Below are positions 38,736-43,151 of a stretch of 64,000 nt of DNA, piece after piece. Source of the DNA: an uncultured Dehalococcoidia bacterium (lineage in GTDB: Bacteria; Chloroflexota; Dehalococcoidia; Lucifugimonadales; UBA3495); contig CAYFGT010000002.1 in the NCBI GenBank assembly GCA_964343075.1, forward strand, positions 89,964 through 153,963, written 5' to 3'. How positions within the stretch are numbered: the stretch's first letter is position 1; the number at the start of each line of letters is the position of its first letter. Made by a program: the position numbers and the translations under genes. The notes beneath the pieces were generated by a model that was not told the DNA's origin, made no database searches, and saw only the letters and a list, made by a program, of their open reading frames with translations.

Positions 38736-38758
38736 TCTTGAGTTACTCAAGAGTTTTT
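38736..38758 (+). terminator. Possible weak intrinsic terminator for the + strand genes, overlapping the copCD stop
   Basis: TCTTGAG-TTA-CTCAAGA followed by GTTTTT. Confidence 0.3.
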
Positions 38759-40995
38759 ATGTAATTCACGAGGTGCCATATTTCTTCATCGGCTAGTATT
38801 GATTCGTGAGGATACATACTAGTACCCTCTTTACCGTATTTGATTATAGAAAATAGTTCGTGATCAGTGTGCAATGGCACGTGGACTAATAAATTATTAG
38901 CATCTTTTTCTGGTACTGGTCTGAGTGTTTCGTATAATGGACCGTCTCCCTTACCTGTTAGTCCGTGGCATGCAACACAATTTTCCCTGTAGATGTTTTT
39001 CCCTATTTGCACAGAAATAGAATCTGGAATCATTGGATTGGTCACTTGATTGTTTAATTCAATCGTGCGCGAATAAATAGAAATTCCTAAGCCTATTAAG
39101 ACTCCAGTAATTCCGATCGTCAAATATAGGCGTCCATATTTATTCTGCCAGCCTCCGCTAGCAATACTTAAGATTAAGAGAGAAATGCCTACGACTAAGA
39201 TTGTTAAACCGAACAAGATTCTCCCAACAAAAATATCTATTTCGCCAAATGAAGGATTGCTGCCACCTATGCTTTCTCTAAAAGCAAATCTAGAATCAAG
39301 TCCAGAAGATTTTTGTATAAGGATTTCAAATTGCCAAATTCCCTCGAGGTTAAGCATTAATGGGTCAGTTTCGTATATCCCTTGGTCTGTTAAGTATGCG
39401 TAGAGAGTTGTATTGCCTACGTCTTCATTTAGGTATGTTGATTTTATGATTACATTCGCTGCGTTTTGGATGGGGTTTCCCGTAAGATCTTGAAGATTAA
39501 GGCTTATGGAATTTAATCCCAGTGAACCGGGGATAATAGCCATGTCCAGATTTACTCCTTGCTCATATTGCTCGAATTGAATTTGGTCTGACAGGATGGT
39601 CTGTGAGCTTTTCGCAGGTTCTAAGGACTTTAAAAACCCTACTGAAATGATAATGAATAGGATTAAAATGGATTCGACAGTAATTAGGTATATGGCTATT
39701 CGGGTCATAGATGTCGGATTTTTGAGGAACTTGATAATGACATAGGTATTGATGCCTGCGATGATAATAGCGAGGCTGATTAAGGTTATTTTGGTCAAAA
39801 GAGATATACCGTAGAGAGTAAATAAAGCTTCCGGTTTATTCACTTGCATCCATCCCACATATAGGCCTGTTATGCTCAGCAGTGCGATTGATAAAATCCC
39901 GATGTTTCTGAATTTAAAAAATGATAGTTTAATAAAATCAGACAAATTAGCGGAGGAGAGCTTTTTTCTTAAGCAATAAGAATAAACCGTTAACGTTATA
40001 ATACTACCGGTCCAAATACTACTGAATATTACGTGCAGTATATTTATTATGACCCCTTGGAAATATAGGCTGCTAATAGATGCATTGTGTCCAGATAAAC
40101 TATGAGCTACAAAAAAAACAACACCAGTGGCTATGACCAAGTATTGTAAACCTACGGATTCCTGGTTTTTTTTGTTCGCTTGTTGGTAGCGGTAGATCGC
40201 ATAGCTTACTGGCAAGGTTAATAGGATGAAGAGTTTAGCCCAGGCCAGTTTACCCCAAGTAGTGTCGAAAAATACGTTTATCAAAGAATTTAGAAAGAAA
40301 TTGAAAGTGGAGACTTCATATAATGATGAGACATGAAGGATCAATTGGATAGAAGATCCGGTTAAAGTCACAACAAACCCTATTAATAAGAGCATATTTC
40401 TTGGAACCAAAGTTATTTCCCAAACGCTATTCTTTGTATGATCTGACATATTTAGTGAGATCGGTTTGAGAATCACCAGGTTGAAAAATGCAGTCCCAAA
40501 TAACAATAAAATTCCAATTAAGATTATCGATTTTACGACTGGCTCCATATCGTACAAAAATACTGATTCTTCTGTAGAAAATGAGGAAGTAGATAATGGT
40601 TCGCCTACTGAGTAAAAATAGCTCCCTCGTACTTTGTGCCCATCGATTGTGGATACATTTTTCCATATAACTGTGTAAGTACCATTAGAGCTTTCTGGCA
40701 AGGTTACACTTAGAGATGTTGGATCGCTTGGGTTTAGTTTGCTATCTCTATTATCTACTTGTTTGCCTTGAGTATCATATACTTTGATAGAGCTTAGATT
40801 TTGAGACAATGTTTCTGTGAATTTGAGGATTATTACTTGGGGACTGGTGTCTAATACACTGTTTTGCTTAGGGTCTGCATCAATCAAATTAGCGTGGCTA
40901 TACACTATACTGGATGAATTAAAGGTAATATAAATTGCAAAAAGGCTGCATAGGGTTATGAAGCCTATCCAGAATTTGACCGGAATGAGTTTCAT
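38743..40995 (-). CDS. CopC-CopD-YtkA-like-cytochrome c fusion (copper uptake/handling)
   Basis: VYS|HANLIDADP and STIDGH (CopC); AHSLSGH, HVIFSSIWTG, YGISLLTK (CopD); LNLEGIWQFEI (YtkA-like); CVACH and M.PH (cyt c); ATG 40995 preferred over track start 41091. Confidence 0.88.
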   Translation of the reverse strand: MKLIPVKFWIGFITLCSLFAIYITFNSSSIVYSHANLIDADPKQNSVLDTSPQVIILKFTETLSQNLSSIKVYDTQGKQVDNRDSKLNPSDPTSLSVTLPESSNGTYTVIWKNVSTIDGHKVRGSYFYSVGEPLSTSSFSTEESVFLYDMEPVVKSIILIGILLLFGTAFFNLVILKPISLNMSDHTKNSVWEITLVPRNMLLLIGFVVTLTGSSIQLILHVSSLYEVSTFNFFLNSLINVFFDTTWGKLAWAKLFILLTLPVSYAIYRYQQANKKNQESVGLQYLVIATGVVFFVAHSLSGHNASISSLYFQGVIINILHVIFSSIWTGSIITLTVYSYCLRKKLSSANLSDFIKLSFFKFRNIGILSIALLSITGLYVGWMQVNKPEALFTLYGISLLTKITLISLAIIIAGINTYVIIKFLKNPTSMTRIAIYLITVESILILFIIISVGFLKSLEPAKSSQTILSDQIQFEQYEQGVNLDMAIIPGSLGLNSISLNLQDLTGNPIQNAANVIIKSTYLNEDVGNTTLYAYLTDQGIYETDPLMLNLEGIWQFEILIQKSSGLDSRFAFRESIGGSNPSFGEIDIFVGRILFGLTILVVGISLLILSIASGGWQNKYGRLYLTIGITGVLIGLGISIYSRTIELNNQVTNPMIPDSISVQIGKNIYRENCVACHGLTGKGDGPLYETLRPVPEKDANNLLVHVPLHTDHELFSIIKYGKEGTSMYPHESILADEEIWHLVNYIKTLE

Positions 40996-41159
40996 TTCAC
41001 TCGTTTGCCCTTCACGCCTAGAATTGCAAGAACTATGGATGCGATTAGTCCTATGAATAGGATCCCATAAAAAATTTCGTCCCAATACCAATATTGACCA
41101 TGTAGAAGAAAAATCATATTTACAGCCTTAATAATAGTCCTAGTTAAATTGTATATTAA

Positions 41160-41201
41160 ATTGAGTTATCTGGCTCAGTAGTGCAGGACAGATAACTCAA
41201 T
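41160..41201. promoter_or_regulatory. Perfect 13-bp inverted repeat with 16-nt spacer (RNA stem or operator)
   Basis: ATTGAGTTATCTG (41160-41172) and CAGATAACTCAAT (41189-41201). Confidence 0.6.
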
Positions 41202-41213
41202 CTCATTTAGGGG

Positions 41214-42224
41214 TTATTTTTTTCTAAACTGCAAAGCTAAGCTTAAGCAGCTGATTACGATACCAACGGCACCAATAATAAAGCTAATTAACACCCAGGT
41301 ATTTATCGTGTCAGAACGCATTAATGCTAATTGAGACGTTTTGGTTGCTTCTGTGATTGCACCTGTGATTTCCCTGTCCGAAGTCAATTTTTGAGGGAAT
41401 TGGATGGCAGTAGGTGGGATAATGTCATCGAAATCACCTCCGCCTCCCATGGATACAAAAGTTTCATCTATTTGAGTGCCATGGATGGTTCCATATACCC
41501 TAATTTCATATACTCCTGGACTAGTTGGTATGAATGGCGAAGTATATCTTCCGGGGTTATCAGCATCTTCGCTTAAATTCAGGATTATAGAAGACTGGCT
41601 ACTAACATGTATCAATTCAGTTTTGAGGGTTTCAGATAATCCGGATATTGGCTGTTTTTCAATGTTATTAGAAGTCATTACACCACTGGTTATGGCGTGT
41701 AATTCTTGGCTGTGATTAACCCAGATGATGGTGGTTCCAGGTTGTATATGAATGTTTGGTGGCATCAGAGAGGTTTCATGAATCATTATTTTAACCTCTC
41801 CCGCATCCCCCTCATTGGATACCTGAATGGTGCCAGTGATATCGTGATTCATGTGATCGTGATACGGAATCTCAACATTGTTGATATCTTTTGAAATGGT
41901 GGTGGAAAAATCGTCTCCAGATGACAATACTTCGCTTGCGAAAATCGCTCCATGCGCTTTGACATCCATATCAGTATGACCGTGTGAGTGATGGTCGTGG
42001 TCATGGTGGCCGTCACTATGTGTCTCTTCTTTCGGTGGTTTCCCTGTAATCTTAAGTTCTATGGCATTGATGATGCCTTCGTAAGCTGGCTCAATTTCAA
42101 ATCCTATGACGAAGTTGAAGTCGTTTACGTCTCTACCTCCATGGGCATATATATCATTTGAAGGTATCCAAGAAAATAATATAGCGGCACACGACAATAC
42201 GAATAAAAATTTAATATATTTCAT
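41214..42224 (-). CDS. Exported, C-terminally anchored His-rich protein with inserted circularly permuted cupredoxin-like domain
   Basis: Signal ending IYA|H; HSDGHHDHDHHSHGH tract; cupredoxin C-half precedes N-half; PGRYTSPFIPTSPGVY (YtkA-like); C-terminal TM; AAGGAG RBS. Confidence 0.75.
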   Translation of the reverse strand: MKYIKFLFVLSCAAILFSWIPSNDIYAHGGRDVNDFNFVIGFEIEPAYEGIINAIELKITGKPPKEETHSDGHHDHDHHSHGHTDMDVKAHGAIFASEVLSSGDDFSTTISKDINNVEIPYHDHMNHDITGTIQVSNEGDAGEVKIMIHETSLMPPNIHIQPGTTIIWVNHSQELHAITSGVMTSNNIEKQPISGLSETLKTELIHVSSQSSIILNLSEDADNPGRYTSPFIPTSPGVYEIRVYGTIHGTQIDETFVSMGGGGDFDDIIPPTAIQFPQKLTSDREITGAITEATKTSQLALMRSDTINTWVLISFIIGAVGIVISCLSLALQFRKK

Positions 42225-42226
42225 AA

Positions 42227-42274
42227 TACTCCTTTAAGTTTATGTTTTGTATAAAACTACTGATTAAGGAGCTA
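42227..42274 (-). promoter_or_regulatory. Predicted SD-sequestering mRNA hairpin joining the end of the uORF to the RBS of the next gene
   Basis: mRNA arm UAGCUCCUUAA (42274-42264) pairs with UUAAAGGAGUA (42237-42227), 10 bp with two bulges; inner GUUUU-AUAC-AAAAC stem in the loop. Confidence 0.6.
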
Positions 42275-42704
42275 CTGGAGGCCTTTGTTTTACCAATGCT
42301 GGTACTTCTAAGAGAATATCCCAAGGATTGTAATAGTAATCTAGTAACGGATTATTTATATCGCTTTGATAAGAAAGTTTGATCCATTTCCAAATCAGAG
42401 TTAAACCTATAAACCCTGTGGTGACCCCGCTATTTGGGATAAATTCAATTGAGGGTTGGGAGTCTAAAGGGTCACTTGAGAGTATGTTGATTGAACCCGT
42501 CTGTGGATGGATATGCATTAATTCGTAATTATGTGTGTGATCTGCAGTGTGAGGCAGATGAGGATGATTGGGATATAGTTCAAATGCGTGATGATCGATT
42601 AAAGGAGTTAGCAATTGGCACAAAAGAGTGACGATAAATACGATAGATATCGTTGTTATTTTATTACTAGGATCACTAACTGGTAGATAACCATGTAAGT
42701 ACAT
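42264..42704 (-). CDS. His-rich membrane-targeted upstream ORF ending KQRPPVAP, candidate metal-sensing arrest/leader peptide
   Basis: Hydrophobic ITTISIVFIVTLLCQLLTPLI; 9 His in 31 aa; second hydrophobic stretch; Pro-rich end; start uncertain (42704 or track 42776). Confidence 0.65.
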   Translation of the reverse strand: MYLHGYLPVSDPSNKITTISIVFIVTLLCQLLTPLIDHHAFELYPNHPHLPHTADHTHNYELMHIHPQTGSINILSSDPLDSQPSIEFIPNSGVTTGFIGLTLIWKWIKLSYQSDINNPLLDYYYNPWDILLEVPALVKQRPPVAP

Positions 42705-43151
42705 ATTAGGCGGAACTCTACAAAAATCGGATACTAAGATAATCTCAATTATATAGTATGCTTTTTTAAGATGCATCTAATTTACGAATTACATCAAGTT
42801 AATGGTCATATGCTAGGTTATATTGTTGTAATTACTGATTGATTGACGACTTTCATTTCCTGGAATACGGTATCTTCGTTCGATGCAAAACAAGATTACG
42901 GATTTAGTTATTTTGACGTCTCTAAAACATAAAAATTTGGTATGGAAAACTGATATTGTTTGCAGTATTATGTCTATATGAAGTGATTAATTCTTGTTGA
43001 TTGGAGCTAATAATTTAATAGTTGATATTGCCCAGAGAGTCACGCAAATGGAATGTGATATTTGGCCAAATGAAACAAGGTTAGTATTGACTAACTGGCT
43101 ATGTTAGGGTAGGCTAATTTTTAACCGCACTTTGATCCTAGAGTTTCATGT

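Follow-up and report, generated by a model that had tools for sequence, protein, structure and literature searches.

The window analysed here is the whole stretch of 64,000 nucleotides from contig CAYFGT010000002.1 of an uncultured Dehalococcoidia bacterium (assembly GCA_964343075.1, positions 89,964 to 153,963 of the forward strand). A gene on its minus strand encodes an exported protein that carries an inserted module, and our comparisons indicate that this module is a circularly permuted cupredoxin which has lost its type-1 copper site and belongs to a clade with a conserved set of histidines of its own. The original prediction, made by a model from the letters alone, had read a circularly permuted, Cys-less cupredoxin in a loop of an exported, membrane-tethered protein; the sequence strings which it quoted are all present in the open reading frame (ORF), and both profile and homologue evidence now support it. 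The protein as a whole probably has a copper-handling accessory role. The gene and the parts of the module are as follows (P0164 and P0193 are homologues described below).

41214..42224, minus strand: whole gene, stop included, for a 336-residue membrane-tethered extracytoplasmic protein made up of a host domain and the inserted module (ORF list and translation; a single ORF fills these positions exactly).
41652..41972, minus strand: inserted module, read as a circularly permuted cupredoxin, residues 85-191, about 107 amino acids (homologue comparison, profile matches).
41820..41954, minus strand: part 1 of the module, corresponding to the canonical C-terminal half, residues 91-135 (HGAIFASEVL...PYHDHMNHDITGTIQV; aligns with P0164 344-383 and P0193 39-86).
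41838..41864, minus strand: former type-1 ligand loop, Y121-H122-D123-H124-M125-N126-H127-D128-I129 (BLASTP to P0193, hidden Markov model (HMM) alignment to P0164, census of 91 modules).
41799..41819, minus strand: linker S136-G142, by which the ancestral termini (C to N) are joined (equivalent to the inter-repeat linker of tandem arrays).
41682..41798, minus strand: part 2 of the module, corresponding to the canonical N-terminal half, residues 143-181 (EVKIMIHETSLMPPNIHIQPGTTIIWVNHSQELHAITSG), including His176 (matches to Pfam Cupredoxin_1 positions 16-62, weak, to amicyanin residues 18-61 and to P0164 400-435).

Strand order of the inserted module

Two profiles were built from the same 13 modules, one in the native order (A2) and the other de-permuted, that is, rearranged as N-half, GG and C-half (A3). 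The PDB matches of A2 were exclusively cupredoxins: amicyanin, plastocyanin, the blue copper domain 5fc9 and a nitrite reductase. On 5fc9 the alignment fell into two stretches in swapped order, with query 71-98 on chain residues 19-46 and query 2-29 on 46-74. A3 aligned end to end with plastocyanin 3bqv (residues 15-103) in the PDB profile search.

With A2, 1.84 billion representatives were searched exhaustively in HMMER, which gave 1582 matches at E<=1e-3, among them long tandem arrays of canonical cupredoxins, on which the profile crosses the repeat boundaries and which reach 4e-42 when summed over the repeats. The protein P0164 is such a canonical tandem cupredoxin (Pfam Cupredoxin_1 6e-32, Copper-bind 1.5e-27). 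A2 covers its residues 344-435 in a single stretch, which runs from the C-half of repeat 1 through the linker into the N-half of repeat 2 (E 6e-16), and A3 covers exactly one repeat, 304-383, with profile positions 2-100 (E 1e-11). The native profile crosses a repeat junction in 24 array matches spanning at least 80 positions, and the window insert itself showed the same junction-spanning pattern with P0097 residues 226-329 (BLASTP E 3e-7). This colinearity with tandem copies across the junction, which is expected of permutants that arise by duplication and trimming, was found for P0164 344-435, P0097 226-329, P0069 925-1017 and others. The canonical strand order, with the N-half followed by the Cys-His-Met loop, is absent from the module, which runs C-half, linker, N-half and so looks like the product expected from a tandem cupredoxin array trimmed at both ends. 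The swapped alignment on 5fc9 and the crossing of the P0164 junction confirm that the C-terminal half precedes the N-terminal one, as originally proposed. By homology across the whole domain, the module is a member of the cupredoxin superfamily.

The permuted unit also occurs alone. P0193, a membrane-anchored protein of 137 residues from the representative library, consists of this unit only and is colinear with the insert (34% identity over 97 residues, BLASTP E 2e-15). Its residues 49-86 match positions 64-98 of the 99 in Pfam Copper-bind (E 4.6e-6) and precede the ...TWTNNSSAIHTVTSG part. P0193 retains the full Cys/His/Met loop (YHCHYHADAGMVG) plus the equivalents of His91 and His176, and is a candidate for a natural permuted blue copper protein. 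The literature searched, most subscription journals lying outside it, yielded no account of a cupredoxin that is circularly permuted in nature.

The AlphaFold2 (AF2) model, computed from an alignment of 60 sequences, is all beta over residues 100-180, with a block-mean predicted local distance difference test score (pLDDT) of 85-97, and its seven confident strands fall on the canonical cupredoxin strand motifs. The cupredoxin topology of the module is thus predicted from sequence homology together with the secondary structure of the model. A Foldseek search of the PDB with the full model returned no cupredoxin among the top 50 matches, only weak Ig-like ones, which may be because the strand order is permuted; the search against a viral library was uninformative and returned no cupredoxin either. 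This result, together with the marginal E-values of the module in the PDB (about 1e-3) and with single-sequence Pfam matches below the threshold, could be taken to mean that residues 85-191 are not a true permutant but a couple of half-domains, unrelated or degenerate, or else the remains of a tandem pair, and that the AF2 model is an artefact. We regard this as extremely improbable. Both halves are colinear with cupredoxin profiles across the repeat junction at the E-value given above, the module of about 105 residues has the size of one cupredoxin and not of two, and the confident strands lie where they are expected. Moreover, P0193 is made of this unit only, with its full ligand set, and about 90 diverged modules conserve both halves together. 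The architecture and the circular permutation are therefore, in our judgement, very probably correct.

Former copper ligands and conserved histidines

The type-1 ligand positions were mapped through P0193 (IPYHCHYHADAGMVG, BLASTP) and P0164 (YHCDIHPNM, HMM alignment). The type-1 Cys corresponds to Asp123, the C-terminal His to Asn126 and the Met to Ile129, and the first type-1 His is retained in the window protein as His176 (LHAITSG). The replacements of Cys and Met had been recognized in the original prediction, but that of the C-terminal His by Asn126 had been overlooked. Only His176 is thus left of the type-1 blue copper ligand set (His, Cys, His and Met or Gln/Leu).

The census covered these positions in 91 permuted modules of full length (cluster representatives at 50% identity). 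The Cys position, 123, is occupied by Asn in 36 modules, Ser in 30, Asp in 22 and Cys in 2, and position 176 by Gln in 43, Val in 14, His in 13 and Ala in 10. Other histidines are kept much more strictly, namely His122 (88 of the 91), His124 (85/91), His91 (84/91) and, to a lesser degree, His127 (56/91). The 23 canonical-order array matches exhibited the opposite pattern: His176 is present in 21 and Cys in 9 of them, and none has a His at position 91. It follows from the census that the conserved feature of the permuted clade is this His set; the His/Asp/Met copper site originally put forward is not supported.

When mapped on P0164, His91 lies five residues after the first type-1 His, and His122 and His124 immediately precede and follow the Cys position. 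Multicopper oxidases use the histidines flanking Cys in a His-Cys-His motif as copper ligands, and the His122-x-His124 arrangement mimics this motif. A nitrite reductase offers a second parallel. The type-1 ligands of the Achromobacter cycloclastes enzyme (AcNiR) are His95, Cys136, His145 and Met150, and its type-2 ligands are His100 (type-1 His95 +5), His135 (Cys136 -1) and His306' (bioRxiv 10.1101/2020.07.12.199695). His91 and His122 of the module occupy the positions of AcNiR His100 and His135. Unlike the enzyme, however, the module has no type-1 copper to which such a site could be wired, and neither a trimer nor a second cupredoxin domain that would give the third ligand. The likeness is seen in the positions, and it implies no catalytic role. 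We give a little less than an even chance to a mononuclear tri-His site on the module, formed by His91, His122 and His124, with or without His127. The face of such a site would adjoin the new termini as well as the host domain and the His tract.

Host domain, insertion loop and other hosts of the module

The remaining parts of the protein belong to the host.

42144..42224, minus strand: signal peptide, residues 1-27 (MKYIK...SNDIYA; basic n-region, hydrophobic core, A-x-A-like end).
42039..42143, minus strand: N-terminal part of the host domain, residues 28-62, with His28, three strands and the invariant E45-P-A-x-E49-G...N53 (alignments, AF2).
41976..42020, minus strand: His tract H69-H83 (HSDGHHDHDHHSHGH), 8 His in 15 residues, a disordered loop (sequence, AF2).
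41421..41651, minus strand: C-terminal part of the host domain, residues 192-268 (PISGLSETL...PGRYTSPFIPTSPGVYEIRVYG...GGGGDFDD; alignments, AF2 strands between 200 and 261).
41232..41297, minus strand: C-terminal transmembrane anchor, residues ~310-331, followed by RKK (hydrophobic stretch and basic residues; AF2 helix 310-335).

The signal peptide, whose residues 2-18 were modelled as a helix, is predicted to be cleaved before His28, which would make this His the first residue of the mature protein. Ala27 and His28 are invariant across 60 homologues, in agreement with the mature N-terminal His of the original prediction. Glu45-Pro-Ala, Glu49-Gly, Asn53 and several host residues of the C-terminal part are invariant in the same 60 sequences. 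The host domain, like the module, was modelled with confidence. The strands of the N-terminal part were placed at 31-33, 36-42 and 53-61, and the pLDDT is below 50 over residues 66-92, a segment which spans the His tract. A helical stalk lies between the C-terminal part of the host and the membrane helix, and the anchor is conserved among the homologues. Searches of Pfam, NCBIfam and PDB with the sequence of the whole protein gave nothing significant; its sole NCBIfam signal was a UreE His tail.

The homologue search covered 5.8 billion proteins and retrieved 67 homologues, those with names being all assigned to Dehalococcoidia, Chloroflexota or SAR202. About 13 of them have the full insert-bearing architecture (33-78% identity). 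Most have 230-245 residues and align only to residues 1-62 and 192-336 of the window protein. In the insert-free P0064, ...VRVTRT is joined to GVEGLEQTL with almost nothing between, and P0016 and P0024 carry only a His/Asp/Ser tract at this point. The search of the representative library, for its part, matched residues 85-190 of the window protein (P0001). The module is an insertion, as defined by alignment with homologues whose loop is empty or holds a tract only; the three proteins confirm that the host domain is interrupted and resumes at P192 (PISGLSETL). His/Asp-rich tracts occupy the same loop in most insert-free homologues, and the His tract therefore belongs to the host loop and not, as was first thought, to the insert.

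The aligned relatives mark the loop that follows the third strand of the host as an accretion site, which holds nothing, a His/Asp tract or other His-bearing modules. P0044, P0054, P0057, P0060, P0063 and P0168 have, in the same host loop, one or two copies of a different module of about 100 residues with the motif GEGHAH(I/V)YVDG...RVxLNxNxH. This module gave no Pfam match at E<=0.01 in P0044, and in P0168 only a weak, sub-threshold match to DUF2846. P0168 carries two of these GHAH-type modules within the linker of a permuted cupredoxin, at the equivalent of S136-G142, so that three levels of nesting are reached; this linker is the place of the ancestral termini. An alternative reading of residues 143-247 as a Cys-less cupredoxin in the normal order, with PGVYEIRVYG as its 'ligand loop', was rejected because insert-free homologues retain PGVYE.RVFG, which assigns this string to the host.

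The fold of the host was approached through P0064, whose AF2 model is a sandwich of eight strands (pLDDT ~90). Its best PDB matches in Foldseek were Brucella FtrA, E. coli FetP, Campylobacter P19, Helicobacter CrdA and Treponema HftA, with E-values from 3e-4 to 8e-3 and TM-scores of 0.43-0.65 on the target; with the full model, CopC 5icu was matched at a TM-score of 0.52. The modelled likeness to P19/FetP/FtrA (E 3e-4 to 2e-3, TM-score about 0.5) would fit a sandwich of the general Ig-like kind, and there is no sequence match; with a profile of the insert-free host, nothing was found in the PDB. The host had been called YtkA-like, which our results do not support. In searches with the YtkA family (PF13115), P0001 gave no match at E<=1 and a single one of 17 insert-free members was matched, at E 0.065; in hhalign, the YtkA-like region of the adjacent CopCD fusion reached a probability of 0.3%, and the nearest folds were P19/FetP/FtrA, CrdA and CopC. 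Membership in CopC (PF04234) was rejected as well (no Pfam match; hhalign probability below 1% against the CopC of the partner protein), and so was membership in DUF1775/YcnI (PF07987), which had no match in P0001 or in the whole 1.55-Mb genome, the Bacillus subtilis control being positive. The host is a Chloroflexota-specific family without a Pfam model and an Ig-like beta-sandwich.

The module is not confined to this host (host A). A second module-bearing family, host B, was found at 14 genome loci (L022-L027, L029, L031-L037; e.g. L026:4614-5381) and in about 47 representatives. In this lipoprotein, positions 4-91 of the 104 in Pfam Cupredoxin_1 are matched by the N-terminal 90-105 residues (E 1e-11 and 2.6e-6), and the last strand (ITLGxLEVxPR) follows the inserted module, so that a cupredoxin is nested within a cupredoxin-like domain. 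The host-B cluster comprises a His-motif transmembrane protein, a secreted protein of 183-196 residues, the lipoprotein and a membrane protein of about 510 residues, in which HGFGERYDLPIPL occurs in the N-terminal region after a hydrophobic leader. The three proteins other than the lipoprotein had no Pfam match. In P0157, from the representative library, a PCuAC chaperone domain (Pfam E 8e-26) is followed by a His/Asp linker and a C-terminal permuted module. By its domain composition, this protein is a third, independent copper-trafficking host of the module.

A maximum-likelihood tree of 102 module-length segments (105 columns) placed all permuted modules on one side of a branch with 98% support in the Shimodaira-Hasegawa-like approximate likelihood ratio test (SH-aLRT) and the array segments on the other. 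The Cys-bearing, stand-alone P0193 lies near the base of the permuted clade. Modules of hosts A and B are interleaved, and the 105 columns do not resolve a one-time exchange between the hosts. In the simplest history, a tandem array would have been trimmed to a permuted blue copper protein, the permuted unit would then have been recruited as an insert, and the type-1 site would have been lost with the His set retained. Since the likely intermediates are at hand (tandem arrays, a stand-alone permuted form with the blue-site ligands and inserted forms without them), the case illustrates cleanly how duplication can lead to a permutant that is then inserted as a domain and has its active site replaced. 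With its conserved histidines at the type-2 positions of nitrite reductase, it also suggests how an electron-transfer site may turn into a copper site of another kind, a route which is open to testing.

The module might also be a metal-free structural or docking domain which places the host on CopCD, cytochrome c or the upstream membrane protein, copper being bound only at the N-terminal His and the tract. All type-1 ligands of the C-terminal loop are indeed gone, and cupredoxin-like domains without a metal are generally known to be common. Insert-free homologues keep the same CopCD synteny, which makes the module dispensable for the core role of the family. We nevertheless consider this explanation unlikely, as the conservation of three to four histidines amounts to 85-97% in the 91 modules while the neighbouring positions vary freely, and the module was repeatedly joined to copper-handling hosts, PCuAC included.

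Copper-related neighbourhood, proposed role and known systems

The gene is flanked by two genes on the same strand.

38743..41091, minus strand: downstream partner, a CopC-CopD-(beta-rich domain)-cytochrome c fusion (Pfam CopC 4e-19, CopD 2e-11, Cytochrom_C 8e-11).
42264..42776, minus strand: upstream partner, a small membrane protein of 170 residues with a proline-rich C-terminal end (PP..PPR) (phmmer and alignment).

The CopC domain of the downstream partner has the mature N-terminus HANLIDADP and a DGH motif. CopD is followed by a beta-rich domain, two further transmembrane helices and cytochrome c, a layout kept in all insert-bearing loci. A CopC-CopD-cytochrome c gene lies directly downstream of the gene in all 21 insert-bearing host-A loci (17 of the 31 species-representative genome matches plus 4 metagenome contigs), which supports the CopC/CopD link of the original prediction. 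It is also found about 0.8 kb downstream of the insert-free P0064. The upstream protein contains a transmembrane helix and the motif GP-x-x-DHH(F/Y)-x-ER-x-P-x-H-x-H(L/V)...H-x-H. It has no Pfam family match; according to phmmer, nearly all loci of hosts A and B have a homologue of it upstream of the gene with the module, and it is probably a third component of the system.

The source genome of 1.55 Mb has one CopC, one copy of the module and one COX2. In an even sample of the class, the module was present in 4 of 301 genomes, all of which belong to the same taxonomic order as the source of the window. A 7.4-kb contig labelled Gemmatimonadetes (L010, NZPK01000164.1) carries a copy of the gene with 78% identity and its CopCD neighbour; the label is probably a binning error, because all other matches are from Chloroflexota. 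Just downstream of the stop codon, and ahead of the start of CopCD, positions 41160..41202 (transcribed on the minus strand) contain an inverted repeat with a stem of about 15 bp. The 134-nt intergenic RNA has a minimum free energy of -23.7 kcal/mol (z -2.06), and no U-tract terminator was called. The stem could act in transcript processing or in attenuation between the two genes. A scan of the locus for sigma-70 promoters and terminators found no more sites than in shuffled sequence.

The module recurs in copper-linked settings: the CopCD neighbour, the PCuAC fusion, the Cupredoxin_1-like lipoprotein and host folds whose nearest relatives bind copper. By analogy with known systems, the best overall explanation is that the protein probably serves as a copper-capture and hand-off accessory of the CopCD importer. 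The N-terminal His28, in a brace-type site with the invariant Glu, and the His tract would take up Cu(II), and the module would form its new mononuclear site from His91, His122 and His124, perhaps joined by His127. Next, the His-brace CopC domain of the adjacent importer would receive the copper for import through CopD, and the fused cytochrome c might reduce Cu(II). We infer that uptake is likelier than resistance from the streamlined genome, the single CopCD and the copper-dependent oxidase; sequence alone does not separate uptake from sequestration or resistance.

Several observations weigh against the accessory role or the tri-His site. His91 is at the edge of the low-confidence segment of the model, where the pLDDT is below 50 as far as residue 92. 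A His-rich tract would suit Ni or Zn as well, and P19/FetP, as relatives of the host, function in the uptake of iron. Furthermore, no CopCD was found within 5 kb in the P0016 lineage or at the host-B loci.

Some of these points lead to the view that the protein handles Zn, Ni, Co or Fe, for instance as a Zn/Ni scavenger or a P19/FetP-like component of iron uptake. Zn and Ni proteins typically have three-His sites of the HxH-plus-H type and His/Asp tracts, NCBIfam gave no signal other than the UreE tail, the tract gives a weak ZrgA match, and the top fold matches of the host, FtrA/FetP/P19, belong to iron-uptake systems. The conserved neighbour, however, is CopC-CopD and not an Ftr1/EfeU permease or a Znu/Nik transporter. 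FtrA, FetP and P19 themselves bind copper, the Foldseek matches including copper-bound or copper-reconstituted FetP and P19 entries, and the PCuAC fusion and the cupredoxin ancestry favour copper. Another metal is, in our opinion, decidedly unlikely.

It is very improbable that the module is an electron-transfer partner of the CopCD-fused cytochrome c, still with a redox-active copper despite its changed ligands. Its cupredoxin ancestry, the cytochrome c of the partner in every insert-bearing locus checked with Pfam and the full type-1 set of the basal relative P0193 would suit such a function, but Cys is replaced in 89 of the 91 modules, the Met and His ligands are lost, and without a thiolate there is no blue electron-transfer site. 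Insert-free relatives, moreover, pair with the same cytochrome c fusion.

Returning to copper capture and hand-off, the system deserves attention because bacterial copper import is still poorly understood, and the window marks an uncharacterised, conserved three-gene copper system which includes the only CopCD of a streamlined 1.55-Mb marine Chloroflexota genome. A more far-reaching interpretation, which we consider possible but doubtful, is that the permuted unit represents an unrecognised class of copper-binding domain, with a cupredoxin shell, a discarded type-1 site and a solvent- or interface-facing, type-2-like tri-His site at the nitrite reductase positions. It would be used as a plug-in in at least three Chloroflexota copper-trafficking proteins (the CopCD-linked family, the Cupredoxin_1-like lipoprotein and PCuAC). 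With the CopC-CopD-cytochrome c fusion and the His-motif membrane protein as its partners, it would form a new copper-acquisition system of marine SAR202-type bacteria, and its role might go beyond binding to a redox function such as cupric reduction.

The module shares one-domain size and homology in both halves with type-1 cupredoxins, i.e. amicyanin, plastocyanin and the tandem arrays of Chloroflexota/Actinobacteria-type surface proteins (PF00127, PF13473), and has in common with them the motifs (V/I)xVxPGxTVxWxNxDxxxHTxTS and FxSGxLxxGxSFxxTF...YxC-loop...G-x-I-x-V. It differs from them in being permuted, with new termini 4-5 residues past the first type-1 His, in the change of Cys/His/Met to Asp/Asn/Ile with a gain of the conserved His91/His122/His124(/His127), and in always lying inside or being fused to another domain, apart from rare stand-alone forms such as P0193. 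With PCuAC chaperones, the only tie is the common module, which in P0157 follows the PCuAC domain and its linker; the window protein has no PCuAC domain. P19/FetP/FtrA, CrdA and CopC are periplasmic copper-binding Ig-like proteins with the folds nearest to the host, but they have no sequence relation to it (no Pfam match), and they differ in ligand layout, as the host has no invariant His apart from that at its N-terminus.

A functional parallel is offered by YcnI of Bacillus subtilis and its partner YcnJ (CopC-CopD-YtkA). The signal peptide of YcnI exposes a His that binds Cu(II) together with a Glu in a brace at the N-terminus, a membrane helix lies at the C-terminal end, and the gene is often found beside CopCD (PMC8424229); Cu(II) is exchanged between YcnI and the CopC domain of YcnJ (bioRxiv 10.1101/2025.05.23.655588). 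The window protein resembles it in its signal peptide, its first mature His with a conserved Glu nearby, its beta-sandwich ectodomain, its C-terminal membrane helix and the adjoining gene for a CopC-CopD fusion. In contrast to YcnI, it has no DUF1775 signal, and YcnI is outside the top 50 fold matches of the host. The window gene lies upstream of CopCD and not downstream, its product carries the tract and the inserted module, and its partner ends in cytochrome c. The copper of B. subtilis YcnI is capped by the conserved Trp137; there is no invariant Trp in the host alignment. The YcnI-type layout as found here (invariant Ala27-His28, Glu45 and Glu49, a helix at 310-335 and CopCD downstream in 21/21 loci) speaks, by analogy, for a protein that may work like YcnI and not for membership in its family. 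The finding as a whole remains within known kinds, a cupredoxin fold and a CopCD accessory protein.

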